Sequence record: NC_054925.1
DNA from: Escherichia phage vB_EcoM_NBG2
Direction: 5' to 3' (one strand)
DNA length: 64,000 bases
The notes beneath the pieces were generated by a model, which saw nothing but the letters and a program-made list of their open reading frames with translations, was not told where the DNA came from and ran no database searches. Shown in pieces: positions 43,021-51,876 of the stretch. How positions within the stretch are numbered: the stretch's first letter is position 1; every line of letters begins with the position of its first letter. The position numbers and the translations under genes are program-made.

Positions 43021-43329
43021 TTATAGCGTAATCCATTCTCGTATTGTCTGAGTTACTACACGTTCACGGGGTTCGACTAATTCAACAGTCGGAACTGCAT
43101 AATACCAGTCAGAATGATAAGAACCTGAACGGCATTCATTTACGGAAACATGTACATTATGTTTTGGGCTAAAATAAACACATTGCCGATATTGGCATTT
43201 GCCATCTTGTACCCAGTCTTCTATTTCGATAGGTTTAAGATAATCCGAAAAATCGAAATCATAATTTTCTGAAAATGCATCATGGTCTTCGATTATTTCG
43301 CTCAAAACTGCATCAACATCGTAAATCAT
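43021..43329 (-). CDS. hypothetical protein
   Basis: 102 aa ORF. Confidence 0.5.
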   Translation of the reverse strand: MIYDVDAVLSEIIEDHDAFSENYDFDFSDYLKPIEIEDWVQDGKCQYRQCVYFSPKHNVHVSVNECRSGSYHSDWYYAVPTVELVEPRERVVTQTIREWITL

Positions 43330-43331
43330 AT

Positions 43332-43547
43332 TTACCCCAATTTAACCATGCAATCGCCATATTTCCATTTAGAAATAGACTTTTCACCGTTAGAATAATA
43401 AACTTCGAGTTTAGCGCGGCCATTTTTAATTTGAATAACCTTTGCTGTCATCAAAGTTCCATACCCATAGTAAACTGCAACCTCATCACCCACATATACC
43501 GCGCTTCCGCGGTAGTCATGGATATAATCAGTTCCTTCAAGCATCAT
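43332..43547 (-). CDS. hypothetical protein
   Basis: 71 aa ORF. Confidence 0.5.
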   Translation of the reverse strand: MMLEGTDYIHDYRGSAVYVGDEVAVYYGYGTLMTAKVIQIKNGRAKLEVYYSNGEKSISKWKYGDCMVKLG

Positions 43548-43808: not shown

Positions 43809-44099
43809 TTATTCCTTAATTCCTAGTACTTGTTTAAAAATCTCGTCATAATCAAGACTTTGGCCCGTTTGTTCTTTATGTTTGTATATAATATCACTTA
43901 CTTCTGATAGCATATTTTTATATGAACGAGTTAAAGCAGATTTAAGAACGCTATATCTATCAGGAAATTTACCATGTTCATTATAATAAGCTATTGCTAA
44001 TTCACGGACTGCTTTTTCAGCAATCTCCATATATTCTTTACGCTTGGTCATTTTCTTCTCTCTCAAATCGGTGTTTGCAATGACGACATTTATATTCAA
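43809..44099 (-). CDS. hypothetical protein
   Basis: 96 aa ORF. Confidence 0.5.
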
Positions 44100-44355
44100 G
44101 CTCTGGTTTACGCCAGTTAATCAATTGTACCTGTTCAGTACCACATTTTGGACAGTTCGGAACATTCTTAGAAGCTCTTTCGCGGCGTTCAACCATAACC
44201 ATAATGGCATCCCAAGCAGGAGGTTTAAAGTCTAGATCGTCACAGCCATGAATCTTTCCACGCATTTCCAGATCGTCTTCTTCGCCAGCCATAATAATTT
44301 TAATTAGACTAGAATTACTTGAAGCTGCAATATCTTCTAATAAGCGCTTTTTCAT
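44038..44355 (-). CDS. zinc-ribbon protein
   Basis: 105 aa (start probably internal); C-terminal CPKCG...CRHC. Confidence 0.45.
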
Positions 44356-45281
44356 TTCAATACCTCAATAGCATTACGTAAACCATTTGCTTTTGCATTA
44401 AGAGCTTTTAACAATTTAGTGTGTTCGGCAATCTGGGCTTCAACTTCAATCAAACGAGCATTGAGATATTCGCGTTCTTCGCTCAGGTTATCAACCTTTT
44501 CTACTTTAGGTTCTTTTACAACTGGCTTATATGTATTAGGGTTCTTCAGTTTAATTAGAATGCGTGAACTGTACAGCATTGAACCATTATCTTCGGTTTC
44601 GTCATACATTTCCACTACGTCCATCATCTCCACCATCGTGCAGAGTTTATAAGACAACGAACGAATAATTTTGTTGTGCTTATTAATTTCTCTAGCTGTC
44701 ATGGTGCCGAGATTACGTGAGTAATAATAAGGAACCTGGATATTAATTAATACTGATGAACCACCTGGCTTGTGTGTTACTTCATCAGCAATAACCCAAT
44801 CCTTAACATGAACTGTATTTGTACGGTCATCGCCCGCGGTAAATAGTTTACGAGCATGCTTAAAAAGCATATTCACTTGGTCATTGAATTGACAAGCGAA
44901 TTTATCAGCAAATTTAGTTTCGGGAATGGTAGATAACCAATCAGCCAAATGGGTCTTTTTAACATCGTTAACAATAGTAAATTCAACCAAATCGGTTATA
45001 GATGTCTCAGATTTAATGAAGCTCGGCTTCATAAAGTTTTTAATGTTATCACTAGCTACAGTAGAAGATAACAGACGAGAACGTTTAAACCATTGAAGCA
45101 AATTGCCTAACGAATGAGAATAAGCGTTTTGAGTATCTTTACAGATATGATTTTCCTGGCCAACATATTGAAGGAAATCACGAAGAATATTATTGATTAC
45201 TGCTCTGTGTCCGATCTGATAATTACGGTGTTTAGTAATAAGACTGTCAAAATAATCAATATAATGTTTACGAGTTTTCAT
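44352..45281 (-). CDS. hypothetical protein, member of tandem paralog array (coiled-coil C-terminus)
   Basis: 309 aa; central motif FNDQVNMLFKHARKLFTAGDD and C-terminal heptad region shared with the next three genes. Confidence 0.55.
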   Translation of the reverse strand: MKTRKHYIDYFDSLITKHRNYQIGHRAVINNILRDFLQYVGQENHICKDTQNAYSHSLGNLLQWFKRSRLLSSTVASDNIKNFMKPSFIKSETSITDLVEFTIVNDVKKTHLADWLSTIPETKFADKFACQFNDQVNMLFKHARKLFTAGDDRTNTVHVKDWVIADEVTHKPGGSSVLINIQVPYYYSRNLGTMTAREINKHNKIIRSLSYKLCTMVEMMDVVEMYDETEDNGSMLYSSRILIKLKNPNTYKPVVKEPKVEKVDNLSEEREYLNARLIEVEAQIAEHTKLLKALNAKANGLRNAIEVLK

Positions 45282-45335
45282 GTTCTTCTCACTTGGTTAA
45301 TGGTTTATACTCCGAGCCATCCTTGGCTTTAAATT

Positions 45336-46337
45336 TTACTTAATTAACTGTAAAGCTTGTTCAAGACGATCCAGGCGATTAACAGATTCTTCCCAAATCC
45401 TTTTAGCCTGCTCATATTCTTTCTGTGCTTTATTAGAAATTTCTAGAACTTCTTTATAAGCTTTTTCTAATGCAATAACTTCTGGACGAATTTCTATCGG
45501 TTCAGGTGAATCGTCAAGACATTCCATTAGTTCCTCAAGGGTAGTTTCTTCTTTAGGAGTATTCACAATTTCATCACATTTTTGCTGGTAAATTTCTTTA
45601 TCAGTCGGTGAGTACGCACACTTTACTTCACGAAGACTAACTACAATTTTATATCCTTCCCAGCCGCATATATTCTTAAAAGGATATGTATGAATATTTT
45701 CTACTGTTTCCATACAAAGTAATGCGGTCTCTAATTGACGAGTTATAGTACTAGCAATTGAGAAAAATTTATTAATGTTCTTTTGGTTAGCTTCTGGTGT
45801 AAAAAATCTGTAATTAATAAAAATAGCTACTTTGTTTTTATCAAGCTCATATTCTTCTGCTATAATCATATCATCAGCTAAGGGATGAATTGTACGATAA
45901 TCACCATAACATAATTTAGAAGCTGATTTTAGAATCTGTCCTTTGAAAAGTCTGAAATTACTAATCCAACGACGAGTAAAAATATTCTCGGTGTCTTCTT
46001 TGACATTAAGATGATAAGAATTAACATCACCGAACCAATTATATCCTACTACATCTTTGGTTCGTTTAATTTCTTTCCCAAAATTACCAAGAATATCCCG
46101 ATTAACCAAATATGAAAGAAGACGAGACTCTTTAAAGGCTTTCTTGATAACATCTTTATCTACACGGCTAGAAATTTTACGAATTTCATGAATAAATTTA
46201 ACAGAAGAAACAATACTTGCGTCAACACTATTGAGCCATTGATTGATAATGGAAATAACGCTATTTTGGCCAAACAACGGTATAGCTTTATCATCAATAA
46301 CGCTATTGAATGATTTGATATATTCGTTACGAGTCAT
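45336..46337 (-). CDS. hypothetical protein, member of tandem paralog array
   Basis: Trimmed to M11 (GAGGAG SD); 333 aa; motif FKGQILKSASKLCYGDY; coiled-coil tail. Confidence 0.55.
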   Translation of the reverse strand: MTRNEYIKSFNSVIDDKAIPLFGQNSVISIINQWLNSVDASIVSSVKFIHEIRKISSRVDKDVIKKAFKESRLLSYLVNRDILGNFGKEIKRTKDVVGYNWFGDVNSYHLNVKEDTENIFTRRWISNFRLFKGQILKSASKLCYGDYRTIHPLADDMIIAEEYELDKNKVAIFINYRFFTPEANQKNINKFFSIASTITRQLETALLCMETVENIHTYPFKNICGWEGYKIVVSLREVKCAYSPTDKEIYQQKCDEIVNTPKEETTLEELMECLDDSPEPIEIRPEVIALEKAYKEVLEISNKAQKEYEQAKRIWEESVNRLDRLEQALQLIK

Positions 46338-46365
46338 ATTAATCTCCTCAGTAGAAAGTAAGAAC

Positions 46366-46395
46366 ATTATACCACATCCTTGTGGTAAAGTAAAC
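46366..46395 (-). promoter_or_regulatory. early promoter (copy of 2428-2458 module)
   Basis: identical 32-bp sequence. Confidence 0.6.
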
Positions 46396-47423
46396 TAGTT
46401 CAGTGCATTTAGTGCATTGTTCAGTTTAGAACGTTGCTTCGTGAGATTTTTGACTTTTTCTTGAGCTTTTTCTAACATCTTTTCAGCTTCTAACACTTCA
46501 TTAGTTGCTTTAACGAGTTCATCATCTACTGCCTTGATAGACTTCTCAATCGCATCAGCATGCCATTTTTCAACAGGTTTAAGACTCGGATTTTCAACAG
46601 GAAGAAAATTCACTTTATTGAATTTCCATGCATCCTTATTACCTGAACTATACATCCAAAATTTAGGATCGTTTGATGAGTAATTGGATAAATTTAAATT
46701 TAAGTTATCTTGCACTTCCTGCTTTTTCTCTTGCGTGACTTCATCCTTTCTCAAAAAATCGTATTTAAATGAAACGATCATATCAAGTTCATATGTTGTT
46801 GTGTCTAATTTAAATCGTTCGAAATGCTTTGAAATCTTAGACTGAACAGCGGCAACAACATCCATATACTTAAATGCTTCTGTCAACTGCGATTTAAGGC
46901 ATTCACAAATTGAAAGAGAATTTTTTGTATTAGGTTTAAAGCTAATTCGTGCAGTTCTATTATTTTCTTTTAATGGTCTTACTTCCATCTGAAGAGTATA
47001 ACCATCAAATTTCAGATTCTTTAAGTTAATATCAGAACCTTTTAATCGACTCGCAGTTGATAAAATTTGCTTTAATTGTCTACGGAACAGAGCAATAAAT
47101 CTCCATTCAATACGATAATGATTTGGATTGAAAAATCCAGATGATAAATCAACCTTACTCTGACCAACGCCTTGAACAAATAGAGGATTTTTATAATCAA
47201 TAGTTTTACAGAAATCGGTGAGCTGCTCACGAGCAGTCATTTGCGTAATATACCCTGCTTTACTAAAATTACGCACCCATTCACTGCTATTCTTATACTT
47301 AAAGTGATGAATAGTACGATTAACTTTATCAAGGTCTAAATTATTTTCACACAAAAATGTCATAACATCACGAGTATCGCTGGCATTACGAACCATATCT
47401 TCAATTTGAGAACGAGTTTTCAT
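46395..47423 (-). CDS. hypothetical protein, member of tandem paralog array
   Basis: 342 aa; motif FRRQLKQILSTASRLKGSD; coiled-coil tail. Confidence 0.55.
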   Translation of the reverse strand: MKTRSQIEDMVRNASDTRDVMTFLCENNLDLDKVNRTIHHFKYKNSSEWVRNFSKAGYITQMTAREQLTDFCKTIDYKNPLFVQGVGQSKVDLSSGFFNPNHYRIEWRFIALFRRQLKQILSTASRLKGSDINLKNLKFDGYTLQMEVRPLKENNRTARISFKPNTKNSLSICECLKSQLTEAFKYMDVVAAVQSKISKHFERFKLDTTTYELDMIVSFKYDFLRKDEVTQEKKQEVQDNLNLNLSNYSSNDPKFWMYSSGNKDAWKFNKVNFLPVENPSLKPVEKWHADAIEKSIKAVDDELVKATNEVLEAEKMLEKAQEKVKNLTKQRSKLNNALNALN

Positions 47424-47431
47424 AGTGTTCC

Positions 47432-48337
47432 TTAAGATTTAAGTAAATCAACAATTTTAATTAACTTTTCACGCTCAGATTTAGCTTTACTACTCAATCC
47501 AGATAGTCTGAAAATTTCATCGTCATACTGTTGAATAGAAATATTCAGCTCTTCAATCTGTTTATTAAAATAATCAATTTGTTCAGAGTGTTTTTCGTTA
47601 CTACGAACTGGTACAGGTTTCGTAGGCAATTTAGTTGAACTGGATTCATCCGGGCGATAAATCAAAATGCAATTTGAACCAATCGGGCATTTAGCACCAG
47701 ACGTATATTCTAATGTTCCAGCTTCTTTTAAAACTTCAAAAGCTAAACAGAGATGATGCCCCATATTAGCATAATCTGTAGAGTAAGCTCTGATGTAATA
47801 ATCATCTCCACGAATACTAAATTTAAAGCATTTAAGGTCTTCTGTATTATTGGTCTTAAAAATCATTTGTTTATCTAGACCTTTAGCTAATCGAGCGCCT
47901 AATGCTAATAATCGTCTTTGATTTTCCCACAAATCCGCAATCATTTGATCGAATGATAATTTTGGCATTAGTCGACCATAAAGGTCATATCCTTTATTAT
48001 AATTACGAAGGATTTCACTCGCATTAATGCGAGACAACGCTCCAATTTTATTAAGGGCTTTCATAATACGATTAGATAAACTCATTCCAGACCCATTTGT
48101 TCGCTGTAGATGTTTTTCTAATCCAAATCCAATATCAACTTTAAACTTATCTAAAATTTCGGCATGAACATCTCTATCAATAACATTCAAATCCAAAGTT
48201 GGGTTAAATCTATGAAAAAATTTATCTGGCTCTCCACGACGAAATACAGTCCATTCATTCATCATTTTTTTATTAACTAAAGATTTAATTACTGCATTGA
48301 CATTATTAATTACTACTGACATATTTTCCTCACTCAA
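47432..48337 (-). CDS. hypothetical protein, member of tandem paralog array
   Basis: 301 aa; motif NQRRLLALGARLAKGLD; coiled-coil tail. Confidence 0.55.
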   Translation of the reverse strand: MSEENMSVVINNVNAVIKSLVNKKMMNEWTVFRRGEPDKFFHRFNPTLDLNVIDRDVHAEILDKFKVDIGFGLEKHLQRTNGSGMSLSNRIMKALNKIGALSRINASEILRNYNKGYDLYGRLMPKLSFDQMIADLWENQRRLLALGARLAKGLDKQMIFKTNNTEDLKCFKFSIRGDDYYIRAYSTDYANMGHHLCLAFEVLKEAGTLEYTSGAKCPIGSNCILIYRPDESSSTKLPTKPVPVRSNEKHSEQIDYFNKQIEELNISIQQYDDEIFRLSGLSSKAKSEREKLIKIVDLLKS

Positions 48338-48731
48338 TTTTACTAATTACGCGAAATAAGATTGAACAGACTACATAAGCACCGCACACAGATTGAACTA
48401 ATACCATTCCAAAGAACCAAATAATATTATCAAACCATGTCTGTTTTACGTCGAAAGGACGTAAACTTACAGTAATATTATCGCCTTTTTCTATTGAAGA
48501 ATACATCTCTGGTGAAATATATTCACTAAATCTATAACCGTCATTTAGTTCATATACAGCAATAAACGATAAACTAGACCCCTTTCCTTGAGTTCCTGTA
48601 AGGGTATTAACTACAGTAACATCATAATCTTTATAATGCATATAATCATTAATAGCATAATAACCATATGCAATTACTATACATAAACAACATATCAATA
48701 AATTCAATCTTTTAATTATCAACTGTTTCAT
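48330..48731 (-). CDS. membrane protein
   Basis: 133 aa; N- and C-terminal hydrophobic segments. Confidence 0.5.
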   Translation of the reverse strand: MKQLIIKRLNLLICCLCIVIAYGYYAINDYMHYKDYDVTVVNTLTGTQGKGSSLSFIAVYELNDGYRFSEYISPEMYSSIEKGDNITVSLRPFDVKQTWFDNIIWFFGMVLVQSVCGAYVVCSILFRVISKIE

Positions 48732-48786
48732 AATAATCTCAATTAAAAGGGCTTAGAACCATTATACCATCCTTGGTATAAAGCAG

Positions 48787-49314
48787 TTATGCGAGTACCG
48801 TCTTTAACCGTTCTTCAAACTTCCGAAGAGTATTTTGGCGTTCAGCTCTTTGCTTTTTGTAAGTTTCAATACGCTCTGAAATGAGAGTGTATCGTTCATT
48901 TACTGATTCTTTCATAAAATCAGGAATTTCACGAGAAGCTTTAATCTCATCAAATTTATCAATAACAGCTTGCTCTTCAGCAATTAAGTTATCATACATT
49001 AAAATATCTTTCTTGATGAACTCAATATCTTCTTGAGTTACACGAGATAATTTAGATACTTTATCCTTTTTGTACTGTTCGTTAGTATCACGAGACCAGT
49101 GCAATGTACGATTTTTATTCGTATTCTTGTAAATTTCTACAATACCAATCTCATCGATAATAACGATCCAATTCCAACGGGATTTGTAAATTTGTCCTCC
49201 ATCAACAGTGATTTCACCTCCGATTGAGATGTCATTAAAGAACTTACTTTGTGCTTCAGATTTAAATTTACCATCGTTGTAATTTACCAAGTTGAAAATA
49301 TCTTTAGCGTTCAT
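48787..49314 (-). CDS. hypothetical protein with coiled-coil C-terminus
   Basis: 175 aa; GGAGGAA SD; early promoter upstream. Confidence 0.5.
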   Translation of the reverse strand: MNAKDIFNLVNYNDGKFKSEAQSKFFNDISIGGEITVDGGQIYKSRWNWIVIIDEIGIVEIYKNTNKNRTLHWSRDTNEQYKKDKVSKLSRVTQEDIEFIKKDILMYDNLIAEEQAVIDKFDEIKASREIPDFMKESVNERYTLISERIETYKKQRAERQNTLRKFEERLKTVLA

Positions 49315-49374: not shown

Positions 49375-49689
49375 CTAAAAGAAACTTCTTTCACAATTTT
49401 TTCCACTGAACCATGCGCTTACCGCTTTCTTAGTCTCAGGAGCAGTGTTATCCATAAACCATTCAAAGGCAGCCTTTTTATGATTCTGGAGGGCTTCTCG
49501 GGCTTTAATCTGCTCACGGTCTATTAACACTAACATATGAGCCTTTCTTGTCACCATGGGCTTCTTATGATTTTTTGAATACTCCCAGTCATTTGTCCAT
49601 CGCATTGTCGTTGCAAATTGAAATACAGCTTCTTTAATCTTAGTTTCGTAAATTTCACGAGCCTTTGAGTATAACATCACTACCTCCAT
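49375..49689 (-). CDS. hypothetical protein
   Basis: 104 aa ORF. Confidence 0.5.
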   Translation of the reverse strand: MEVVMLYSKAREIYETKIKEAVFQFATTMRWTNDWEYSKNHKKPMVTRKAHMLVLIDREQIKAREALQNHKKAAFEWFMDNTAPETKKAVSAWFSGKNCERSFF

Positions 49690-49778: not shown

Positions 49779-50747
49779 TTATTTCAGAAGAGTAACCTCA
49801 GCAATTTCTTCCCAACCGTTTTTGTCGGTCATAATAAAGTCAGCAAGATAAAGAGCAGTACGCAGTGAAACATTGCGTAAACGATTAACATTGACTTTCA
49901 TCCATGATAATGCTTTATAAGTTTCTTCATCAGAAAGACCGCGCTTTTGCATCATGTCAGTTGAAAGAATAACATCTTCAACCCTGACCATAATTTCTTC
50001 ATTAGTGTGAACACCCAAATCTAAATAAACCGAGCGGGACACTAATGCTTGTAAATGTGGAGCAAGTTTAGTACCGCGGTCTAATTCGCGGTCAATGTCA
50101 ACGTTTGTGATAAAAACAATCGTTCCTTTAAATTCAAACTCACGGTCAATGCCTTTTTCTTCTAAGTAAGAAGATGCAGTGCTCCAGCAGACTTTACGGG
50201 TCTCTCCAGTGTCCAGAGCAGCTTTTAGAAGATTAAGAATGTCCATATCAGAGAAAACATCCACATCATCAATCAAAAGGACAGAGTTCTCTTCACGATT
50301 ATACCAAAGCTGCTCATAAAGACCAATACCAGAGATTTTACCATTAATGCTTTTATATTCAATGTATCCAATATCGTTTGCTTTATTTAAAGCTTTATCT
50401 AAAGAATACGTTTTACCAATACCTGCTGCGCCAGAGATAATTAATGAACGAATATTTCCATTAATAATACCATTCGTCATCATTCCCATAACATTAAATC
50501 TTTTATTAATGCGGGTTTTCATATCTTCATATGATTCTTTAACTTCTTCAACTTTTACACCATCATATGAAATATCTGATTTGTAAACCCAAACACCACG
50601 ACGTTTACCGTCAATTTCAACAAAAACTTTACCATCTCCTTGTGCATCTACCGGAGCATTATCTGGGAACCATTCGCCTAAGAGCTCAAAAGTTCCAGAG
50701 ATTTCTTTACCGAAGTAGATACCCTTATTGATAGTTACAGTTTTCAT
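49779..50747 (-). CDS. P-loop ATPase (AAA-like)
   Basis: Track ORF trimmed to M57 (longer start runs through promoter and hairpin); 322 aa; Walker A GAAGIGKT, Walker B LLIDDVD. Confidence 0.6.
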   Translation of the reverse strand: MKTVTINKGIYFGKEISGTFELLGEWFPDNAPVDAQGDGKVFVEIDGKRRGVWVYKSDISYDGVKVEEVKESYEDMKTRINKRFNVMGMMTNGIINGNIRSLIISGAAGIGKTYSLDKALNKANDIGYIEYKSINGKISGIGLYEQLWYNREENSVLLIDDVDVFSDMDILNLLKAALDTGETRKVCWSTASSYLEEKGIDREFEFKGTIVFITNVDIDRELDRGTKLAPHLQALVSRSVYLDLGVHTNEEIMVRVEDVILSTDMMQKRGLSDEETYKALSWMKVNVNRLRNVSLRTALYLADFIMTDKNGWEEIAEVTLLK

Positions 50748-50781
50748 TTTATTCTCCAAATCCGTATCAGTTGATAGTTGT

Positions 50782-50811
50782 ATAGTACCATAAAGCTTTA
50801 TGCTTGTAAAC
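50782..50811 (-). promoter_or_regulatory. early promoter upstream of P-loop ATPase gene
   Basis: GTTTAC, 18 nt, TGGTACTAT. Confidence 0.55.
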
Positions 50812-50841
50812 AGTTTTGTGAAAAATTTTTGAAATAAAAAA

Positions 50842-50859
50842 GGGAGCCCGAAGGCTCCC
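50842..50859 (-). terminator. hairpin (UUCG loop) preceding early promoter
   Basis: GGGAGCC-CGAA-GGCTCCC. Confidence 0.5.
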
Positions 50860-50862
50860 TTA

Positions 50863-51876
50863 TCATTTATAATAACTTCGGTGGTTTTCAAGATAAACCC
50901 TCTCAAGGAAGTCATCCCAGAAACCCATGTCTACTTTTTGCTGCATACCGTTCTTAGAAGCTTCAATGGATGCTGCTTCTACTTGATCGACCACATCTTC
51001 CAAAAACTCTTGGACAGTTTTAAATGGATGTTTACCCAACTTCACGTCGAGAATAAATGGAGCATCTTGGAGTGGATAAACCAAATCACCAGTTTTGTAA
51101 ATTTCCAATAGTTGGAGTCCACCACGGCAAGCATGACTAAGAGCTTTCCAGTCAATGCCCTCATTCGCTTCAGCCTTACGAGCACGTTCGCCGTATTCAG
51201 CATCTAATTTGTTCAGTGACTGCTTAAGCTCAATAAGAGAAAGCGTTGTCTGATATTTACGACCCAACACAGTATAGAACGTTTGCGGGCCTGTTTTCTC
51301 GTGATTATGGAACACCCATTCACAGAACTCGTTCTCTGGAAGACGATGCTTAATATCTTCAACTTTAGTGCGACGCTGCTTAATGGAACCGTCTTCTTGA
51401 TAATCAACCCACTGATCGGGGATTTGATTAACTACTTTCAATACATCACGCAATGCGGCCAAACGAGAACCCTTAACACCATATTTAGAAGCTTGCTTGC
51501 GAACATATCCTAAATAGGATTTCATGTTAGTTGTATAAAACCGTGAACGATTGTCTTGAATAAACTTCCATACATCAGGCAAATCTGATTTAACTACTAG
51601 TTCAGGTGGAGTGTGGAGCATATCCAATGCTACAGTTTCACCATCTGCTGCTAATTTAAAGAAATACTTAAGACTGTATAGTTCATGGTCAATATCATCT
51701 TTAGTGTTTTTAGATGATGTGTTGTTAGTGTTTTTACTCATATGCTCTTTAACATTTCCGATAAGAATATCGCGAGCAGGAGGAACAAAGATTTCTTTAA
51801 AATCTACATCAGATTCTGGAGTAGAAGTTCCATAAAGATGACTACCAAAATAGCTTTTCATTACTGTTTTCATCAT
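50863..51876 (-). CDS. putative nucleotidyltransferase (Pol-beta-like fold)
   Basis: 337 aa; N-terminal GSHLYGTSTPESDVDF and downstream DMLH acidic residue. Confidence 0.5.
   Translation of the reverse strand: MMKTVMKSYFGSHLYGTSTPESDVDFKEIFVPPARDILIGNVKEHMSKNTNNTSSKNTKDDIDHELYSLKYFFKLAADGETVALDMLHTPPELVVKSDLPDVWKFIQDNRSRFYTTNMKSYLGYVRKQASKYGVKGSRLAALRDVLKVVNQIPDQWVDYQEDGSIKQRRTKVEDIKHRLPENEFCEWVFHNHEKTGPQTFYTVLGRKYQTTLSLIELKQSLNKLDAEYGERARKAEANEGIDWKALSHACRGGLQLLEIYKTGDLVYPLQDAPFILDVKLGKHPFKTVQEFLEDVVDQVEAASIEASKNGMQQKVDMGFWDDFLERVYLENHRSYYK

Follow-up and report, generated by a model that had tools for sequence, protein, structure and literature searches.

Sequence and model evidence for a tandem family of four nrdC-locus paralogs, nrdC.3 to nrdC.6, in a T4-like phage

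Neither ECOR17 nor MG1655 with the ECOR17 dsr1 gene supports plating of a T4 clone that has compensatory deletions, and plasmid-borne nrdC.5 alone restored plating of the deletion clone on the Dsr1 host (Srikant, Guegler and Laub 2022, PMC9391042). According to a 2026 preprint (PMC12803255), it is the phage major capsid protein that triggers the TPR sensor of Dsr1. In the papers searched, nrdC.5 has been handled as a single uncharacterised early gene. Among the T4 internal proteins, IPI acts against GmrSD and IPIII against an unknown system of ECOR17, and internal proteins are lost in compensatory deletions. Here we analyzed four adjacent genes, nrdC.3 to nrdC.6, in a 64,000-nucleotide stretch of Escherichia phage vB_EcoM_NBG2 (NC_054925.1), referred to below as the window. 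T4 is the reference lytic phage, and about half of its genes, these four included, have no assigned function. The reading that we favor, with moderate confidence, is that the array consists of four paralogs of one Straboviridae-specific family acting in non-enzymatic counter-defence, NrdC.5 against Dsr1 and the others against other sensors.

Identity of the array and its nrdC.5 gene

The best match to the 5.7-kb region among 736 matching phage records was phage IME340 (96.4% identical), and by its sequence the window is part of a T4-like genome, that of a Tequatrovirus myovirus. Gene names were taken from mapping minus-strand open reading frames (ORFs) onto the T4 reference annotation; all features below lie on the minus strand, and coordinates are those of the window. 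An earlier, sequence-only reading of this DNA had reported four consecutive ORFs of 309, 333, 342, and 301 amino acids (aa) and an additional ORF of 175 aa, all of which are present. By the T4 mapping, the four are nrdC.3, nrdC.4, nrdC.5, and nrdC.6, and the additional gene is nrdC.8. The nrdC.3-type gene (44352-45281, 309 aa) matches PHROG 1435 with an E value of 4e-116, as does nrdC.4 (45336-46337, 333 aa; E value, 9e-166), whose product is 94% identical to T4 NrdC.4. The nrdC.3 allele is divergent, being only 60% identical to T4 NrdC.3, with flanking genes at 98 to 100%.

The product of the 342-aa gene (46395-47423) matches the Pfam family DUF7235 (PF23882) over residues 1 to 342 with 415.7 bits and an E value of 1.6e-124 (gathering score, 30 bits). 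It is 94.3% identical to T4 NrdC.5 over 333 aa, and both genes lie between nrdC.6 and nrdC.4. Because of this 94% identity, the synteny, and the full-length DUF7235 match, the gene is identified by sequence as the ortholog of the T4 anti-Dsr1 gene nrdC.5. Unlike T4 NrdC.5, the NrdC.3, NrdC.4, and NrdC.6 proteins do not match the DUF7235 model. NrdC.6 matches PHROG 2257 (phrog_2257) with an E value of 1.1e-151, and the tag PF26899 is present on all 105 of its homologues. The precomputed tag PF26897 is found on NrdC.4 homologues and on the NrdC.3-derived part of protein P0056, a natural in-frame NrdC.5::NrdC.3 chimera. The earlier statement that no functional domain is recognizable holds in the sense that DUF7235, PF26897, and PF26899 are all families of unknown function, but the family memberships themselves do exist. 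No known domain, enzyme signature, known fold, or solved homologue was found: Pfam returned only DUF7235 (for NrdC.5), PADLOC and NCBIfam returned nothing above threshold, and the PDB sequence search was empty.

The gene for NrdC.6 occupies 47432-48322 (296 aa), within a longest ORF of 301 aa that opens with TTG (47432-48337). Because the ATG at 48322 is preceded by the Shine-Dalgarno sequence GAGGAA and homologues are 296 aa long, this ATG is likely the true start. An M(K)TR start had been ascribed to all four genes; it is found in three of them (MKTR in NrdC.3 and NrdC.5, MTR in NrdC.4), but NrdC.6 begins MSVVINN. Protein P0121 of Shigella phage Sf25 (378 aa) and BFVD A0A2K9VMF6 represent a NrdC.6 homologue that is about 80 residues longer than usual and 96% identical where the two forms overlap. 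Either a fusion or a mis-called start, perhaps one that involves nrdC.7, may account for the extra length.

Relationship among the four proteins

Plain blastp, run all against all, linked only NrdC.3 and NrdC.4 (27% identity over 204 aa). These two proteins fall in the same PHROG, and NrdC.3 aligns full-length and colinearly with the NrdC.4 family. For profile comparisons, the NrdC.5 profile was broadened with its positional orthologues from CJ20, Yersinia phage P8, and JS98, which are 22 to 26% identical to nrdC.5, and scores were compared with a colinearity null in which 15-column blocks of the target profile were shuffled 100 times. In hhalign, the broadened NrdC.5 profile aligned with the NrdC.3/4 profile over 131 columns with a probability of 76% and an E value of 2.3e-5; its score was 44.5, compared with 23.2 ± 2.4 for the null (0/100) and 13.1 for the reversed profile. 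NrdC.6 scored 28.2 against NrdC.3/4, compared with a null of 16.6 ± 2.4 (0/100), and the two scores stand 5 to 9 standard deviations above the null. Taken transitively, the profile alignments of the three pairs are consistent. NrdC.4 residue 65, NrdC.5 residue 50, and NrdC.6 residue 92 are aligned in a block of the form F-K-x-S-R-L-L-S...D-x-L-x-N-F-G-K, and the A-x-[KR]-L motif segments align across families as well.

In other genera, proteins encoded at the syntenic locus bridge the families. With the NrdC.3/4 hidden Markov model (HMM), P0234/Marfa_080 scored 35 bits, over the body; with that of NrdC.5 it scored 31 bits, over the linker and tail. IME523 gp085 gave 23 bits with the NrdC.6 HMM, 16 with that of NrdC.5, and 7 with that of NrdC.3/4, and the reversed decoys for the bridging proteins scored approximately 0. 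When 1.8 billion representatives were searched exhaustively with the NrdC.3/4 profile in HMMER, 11 hits were obtained, of which the intermediate P0234 was the one of use; all 11 came from T4-like phages, and typical members of the NrdC.5 or NrdC.6 family were absent. Marfa_084, Marfa_082, Marfa_078, Marfa_086, and IME523 gp088 were tried as extra family members and rejected.

A shared central motif, [QR]xLxxxxxxASRLxxG[DS], had also been described for the four proteins. In this literal form it matches none of them, and only a loosened form, ..[LI][LFK]..[AG][SRA][KR]L..G.[DS], composed post hoc from the observed sequences, matches all four. Each protein contains one match, at comparable positions (residues 118 to 155), and no match was found outside the four paralogs in the 31,938 aa of six-frame ORF segments of the window. 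The matching segments are QVNMLFKHARKLFTAGDD in NrdC.3 (44826-44879), KGQILKSASKLCYGD in NrdC.4 (45900-45944), KQILSTASRLKGSD in NrdC.5 (47031-47072), and QRRLLALGARLAKGLD in NrdC.6 (47873-47920).

The heptad-rich C-terminal tails that the sequence-only reading had noted in these genes are real. A coiled coil was defined as unbroken hydrophobic heptad periodicity over at least 5 heptads, and all four proteins show it. In the last 49 residues of each paralog, 79 to 93% of a/d positions are hydrophobic, versus 17 to 29% elsewhere, and the shuffle p value is at most 0.0035. The tails comprise residues 261 to 309 of NrdC.3 (44355-44501; p = 0.0025), 285 to 333 of NrdC.4 (45339-45485; p = 0.0035), 294 to 342 of NrdC.5 (46398-46544; p < 0.0005), and, in ORF numbering, 253 to 301 of NrdC.6 (47435-47581; p = 0.0005). 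The heptad register relative to the C-terminal ..A[IL]xxL[KN] ending is identical in the four paralogs, and control proteins gave no signal in the same test. The NrdC.5 tail is homologous to the tails of P0234/Marfa_080 and IME523 gp085. From the pattern and the models, this amphipathic heptad helix of about 50 residues most likely forms a coiled-coil oligomer. As a separate observation, gp082 of Klebsiella phage Marfa (L009 4272-4706, 144 aa) ends in ...NIDNGLFALK, resembling the ending of the paralogs; its HMM scores were not above those of decoys, and it could be a tail-only remnant or a coincidence.

The idea of a constant tail attached to a variable head was not borne out. Between paralogs, the tails are only 14 to 29% identical and are as diverged as the bodies, and the best-conserved blocks (up to 40%) lie in the body; the tail was therefore rejected as the most conserved part. 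The N-terminal halves are highly diverged, as had been claimed, yet they are homologous. Within each orthologous family, the tail is just slightly better conserved than the alpha/beta domain. By these comparisons, the tail is a conserved feature of architecture, with a sequence that between paralogs is as diverged as the rest. The additional gene, nrdC.8 (48787-49314, 175 aa), had been credited with a similar tail. Its heptad signal is weak (p = 0.03), and it was rejected as a fifth member, having no detectable similarity to the four paralogs and a housekeeping-like conservation.

Structures of NrdC.4 (predicted local distance difference test [pLDDT], 79.5; predicted template modelling score [pTM], 0.64) and NrdC.6 (pLDDT, 74.4; pTM, 0.65) were predicted as monomers with AlphaFold from separate family alignments. 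The two models run through their secondary-structure elements in an identical order. Six helices at the N terminus lead into a few short strands and then three helices; a long helix flanked by two beta-hairpins comes next, followed by a low-confidence linker and a long C-terminal helix. In NrdC.4 the latter is modelled as a single 48-residue helix (residues 285 to 332), and in NrdC.6 as helices 251 to 277 and 283 to 300. When each model was compared with BFVD by Foldseek, nearly all matches were full-length and to uncharacterised Straboviridae proteins of 300 to 370 residues. Seven targets, from phages PM2, IME523, fHyAci03, Acj9, Acj61, fHe-Yen9-01, and CBH8, were common to both searches (E values, 1e-8 to 6e-3). 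Structure prediction, which had been suggested as a test of a shared fold, supports one for NrdC.4 and NrdC.6. The predicted common architecture would start with an N-terminal helical bundle and a helix-rich segment that holds the A-x-[KR]-L..G-[DS] motif. A small alpha/beta domain, in which a long helix lies between two hairpins, would come next, joined by a disordered linker to the heptad helix. Residues 30 to 86 of NrdC.3 (45024-45194) have a weak NCBIfam match to the XerD/XerC N-terminal core-binding domain (E value, 0.0017; 17.7 bits, far below the cut-off), which may hint at an N-terminal helical bundle of the XerD/XerC type.

An alternative explanation is that only nrdC.3 and nrdC.4 are true paralogs and that nrdC.5, nrdC.6, or both are convergent, similar length, a helical N terminus, and a coiled-coil end being common in small phage proteins. 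Several results weigh against a single family and on the side of convergence. Besides the nonsignificant blastp comparisons, HMM-versus-sequence scores between families were not above those of reversed decoys (coiled-coil decoys reach 12 bits), and hhalign with shallow, family-only profiles gave probabilities of just 1 to 7% between families. In the all-versus-all profile alignment that had been proposed for these proteins, NrdC.5 and NrdC.6 each exceeded the null against NrdC.3/4, but the direct NrdC.5-NrdC.6 comparison was neither significant nor above the null; these two are linked only transitively and via the bridging proteins. The membership of NrdC.5 rests on profile evidence and intermediates, and the template modelling scores to the BFVD targets are just 0.4 to 0.47 with large root mean square deviations, values that probably reflect flexible multidomain models. 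Convergence would, however, have to account for the probability of the broadened profiles and their colinear scores, the transitively consistent alignments, the identical element order of the NrdC.4 and NrdC.6 models with their seven shared fold-search targets, and bridging proteins from the syntenic locus of other genera. We regard convergence as very unlikely. The sequence, profile, and structure evidence bears out the earlier proposal of tandem paralogs for the four genes, whose common descent we consider well supported.

Copy number and divergence

The position of the family is constant, upstream of nrdC.2, nrdC, pin, and gene 49. The copy number of the family, which the sequence-only reading had proposed to compare across T4-like genomes, does vary among these phages. 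One copy is present in Klebsiella phage Marfa and Enterobacter phage IME523. Three are present in JS98, CJ20, and P8, namely, nrdC.6, an nrdC.5-like gene, and nrdC.4, without nrdC.3 or nrdC.7, and four are present in T4-type phages. Within Tequatrovirus, ACG-C40 has kept only nrdC.6 together with out-of-frame remnants, and Pinarejo has lost nrdC.6. Salmonella phage Manna (L007 3215-4252) carries an in-frame NrdC.6(1-262)::NrdC.4(251-333) chimera with its junction at a 'DEI' microhomology. Judged by their sequences, the Manna and P0056 chimeras arose through deletions at short microhomologies, with the body-linker-tail layout preserved.

The paralogs diverge faster than their surroundings. Between genera they are 22 to 52% identical, compared with 67 to 87% for neighboring genes (67 to 70% for NrdC.8 versus JS98 and CJ20), and the alleles of nrdC.3 fall into identity classes of approximately 97%, 77%, and 60%. 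Pairwise ratios of nonsynonymous to synonymous substitution rates (dN/dS) are 0.12 to 0.31 for nrdC.3, 0.16 to 0.20 for nrdC.4, 0.10 to 0.20 for nrdC.5, and 0.05 to 0.09 for nrdC.6 (0.24 against the Manna chimera). Those of gene 49, nrdC, nrdC.8, nrdC.9, nrdC.10, and nrdC.11 are mostly 0.00 to 0.08; nrdC.8 ranges from 0.03 to 0.12, with one comparison at 0.12. Overall, the paralogs evolve 5 to 10 times faster than the flanking genes, which suggests relaxed constraint or faster evolution. The sequence-only reading had seen the locus as diversifying. Diversifying selection is not supported by gene-wide dN/dS values of only 0.05 to 0.31.

Fast divergence bears on another explanation, in which the genes have a housekeeping or host-takeover role, either in nucleotide metabolism or as DNA-binding or regulatory proteins acting through the N-terminal helical bundle, and the effect of NrdC.5 on Dsr1 is indirect. 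The genes adjoin nrdC, many records call them thioredoxins, and NrdC.3 has the weak XerD/XerC match at residues 30 to 86. Their divergence is nevertheless much faster than that of the true nucleotide-metabolism neighbors, and the genes can be lost both from natural phages and from laboratory ones. A thioredoxin or glutaredoxin identity was rejected: neither this nor any other enzyme domain was found in the Pfam, NCBIfam, and PDB searches, and the NrdC.4 and NrdC.6 models do not have a thioredoxin fold. Homologues of nrdC.1 to nrdC.11 are labelled 'thioredoxin' in hundreds of GenBank records and occasionally 'Mur ligase domain,' 'tail sheath stabilizer,' or 'RNA ligase,' labels for which we found no supporting similarity. 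The thioredoxin label tracks the gene name, not similarity, and looks like a naming artefact propagated as an error; the present analysis flags this widespread mis-annotation in hundreds of phage records. A housekeeping role for the array appears quite improbable to us.

Function, surroundings, and related systems

T4 early promoters of the array lie upstream of nrdC.8 and upstream of nrdC.4. The latter, an early-type promoter found by consensus scan and reading of the sequence (GTTTAC..N..GTGGTATAAT, 46366-46394), is predicted to drive nrdC.4, nrdC.3, and nrdC.2. Because this promoter ends at 46366, the alternative nrdC.4 ATG at 46367 would lie outside the transcript, and the start at 46337 (333 aa) is taken to be the real one. 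A middle-type promoter read from the sequence (MotA box TGCTTTA plus TATAAT, 48761-48785) is predicted to drive nrdC.7, nrdC.6, and nrdC.5. Equivalents of the nrdC.4 early promoter and the nrdC.7 middle promoter are annotated in phage SA20RB. With these predicted early and middle promoters, the array genes would be transcribed before replication and therefore expressed earlier than capsid synthesis.

The earlier proposal of a counter-defence locus stands for nrdC.5, given that T4 nrdC.5 overcomes Dsr1 (PMC9391042), and is plausible for the other three. Because nrdC.5 neutralises Dsr1 and all four genes are paralogs, nrdC.3, nrdC.4, and nrdC.6 are good candidates for immune-evasion factors. Since the family shows neither a catalytic domain nor polar residues conserved in all members, we infer a non-enzymatic mode of action. 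By analogy, NrdC.5 would bind the SIR2-TPR sensor Dsr1 stoichiometrically and, ahead of the appearance of the capsid protein, block either its activation by the major capsid protein or the assembly of the NADase. The coiled-coil tail would multimerise the inhibitor, providing avidity or matching the oligomeric state of the target. The other three copies may stem from duplications of one ancestral gene, which would have taken the number from 1 copy to 3 and then to 4. NrdC.3, NrdC.4, and NrdC.6 may since have diverged toward neutralising further immune sensors of the host, or variants of the Dsr1/Avs7 type, that are met in Enterobacteria. As the array is dispensable on laboratory hosts, its members would be gained, lost, and recombined by microhomology-mediated events.

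The same tails and promoters would also suit a different arrangement, in which the four proteins assemble as subunits into a single hetero-oligomer, joined through their coiled-coil tails and acting jointly on one process, possibly Dsr1 evasion. All four carry the C-terminal heptad helix in the same register, the genes point the same way and have adjacent promoters of early and middle type, and tails are swapped in the natural in-frame chimeras. However, nrdC.5 by itself was sufficient to restore plating of the T4 deletion clone on the Dsr1 host (PMC9391042), phages carry 1, 2, 3, or 4 members with single members naturally lost, and tails that are 14 to 29% identical between paralogs favor homotypic over heterotypic pairing. 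A joint complex thus seems unlikely to us.

The favored reading, four paralogs acting in counter-defence, has points of its own against it. Among the four paralogs, experimental support covers NrdC.5 only, as the T4 allele, and binding of NrdC.5 to Dsr1 is inferred for T4 NrdC.5 too. All gene-wide dN/dS values are below 1 (0.05 to 0.31), with no gene-wide positive selection found, and an arms race is not demonstrated. A more specific version, which we put forward as a rather doubtful conjecture, is that the array is a repertoire of inhibitors, each directed against a different clade of capsid-sensing TPR sensor domain (Dsr1, Avs7, and relatives) or against other oligomeric immune sensors. The body would bind and the tail multimerise, and the expansion from 1 to 4 copies in T-even phages infecting E. 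coli would track the diversity of sensors in Enterobacteria.

If the four genes form a family with a shared fold not seen before, three T4 genes that are now anonymous would turn into specific counter-defence candidates that are cheap to test. Should the repertoire version be true, nrdC.3, nrdC.4, and nrdC.6 would be three new anti-defence genes with a fold absent from solved structures. The body domain, disordered linker, and coiled-coil tail would offer a structural framework for studying Dsr1 inhibition, and the series of 1, 3, and 4 copies with its in-frame chimeras would be a small, tractable example of an anti-immune repertoire built and pruned by duplication and microhomology recombination.

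Several genes surround the paralogs. The first, nrdC.2 (44038-44355, 105 aa), is found downstream of the family as its constant neighbor in all genera examined. The nrdC.2 start and the nrdC.3 stop overlap by 4 nucleotides, and the nrdC.2 product has a C-terminal CxxC...CxxC zinc ribbon with weak Pfam zinc-ribbon matches. Within the array but outside the paralog family, nrdC.7 (48330-48731) encodes a small membrane protein. Beyond nrdC.8 comes nrdC.9 (49375-49689), followed by nrdC.10 and then nrdC.11. The longest nrdC.10 ORF (49779-50915, 378 aa) overlaps nrdC.11 by 53 nucleotides and has weak AAA/clamp-loader-like similarity. Because residue 57 of this ORF (MKTVTINKG; start at approximately 50747) is where both T4 NrdC.10 (325 aa) and the PHROG match begin, the real nrdC.10 is probably shorter. 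On the other side, about 1 kb from the array, a 102-aa ORF (43021-43329) is 96% identical to T4 gp49.2, whose T6 homologue was recently reported to inhibit the OLD defence nuclease (PMC13096335). A match to T4 gp49.3 is missing from the window, and a different 71-aa ORF (43332-43547) takes the place of that gene. The neighboring pin gene encodes an inhibitor of the host Lon protease (T4 annotation), and the presence of pin and gp49.2 beside the array counts in favor of the counter-defence reading.

Two elements of this picture are already known: the anti-Dsr1 role of nrdC.5, which is published, and the grouping of NrdC.3 with NrdC.4, which is found in automated resources. Our literature search found no paper on nrdC.3 to nrdC.6 as one paralogous family, on a shared fold, or on the 1/3/4 copy series, no function for nrdC.3, nrdC.4, or nrdC.6, and no later work on the mechanism of nrdC.5. 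Relative to T4 NrdC.5 (DUF7235; PMC9391042), the 342-aa gene described here is the predicted ortholog, and the other three are its paralogs, sharing its architecture.

The closest functional parallel is DSAD1, the inhibitor of DSR2. As described in the reports on it (PMC10973363, PMC10981675, and PMC11087589), DSAD1 is, like NrdC.5, a phage protein that gives escape from a SIR2 NADase sensor triggered by a virion structural protein. DSAD1 acts by binding its sensor, and the same mechanism is proposed for NrdC.5 by analogy; a comparison of the two detected no similarity of sequence or fold. The T4 internal proteins IPI, IPII, and IPIII resemble the array in being a small accessory set of T-even phages with one shared module, otherwise divergent bodies, and members directed against different defences. 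They differ in that their shared module is an N-terminal capsid-targeting sequence and that they are injected with the DNA, whereas NrdC.3 to NrdC.6 have whole-length homology and a coiled-coil end and would be made after infection from early and middle transcripts. The anti-defence clusters of T4, that is, the dmd-tifA-adfA 'anti-TA (toxin-antitoxin) island' and pin with gp49.2 beside the array, likewise comprise non-essential early genes that act against host defences and undergo amplification or deletion at microhomologies. Those clusters hold unrelated genes, whereas the nrdC array appears to be one gene family, tandemly expanded.

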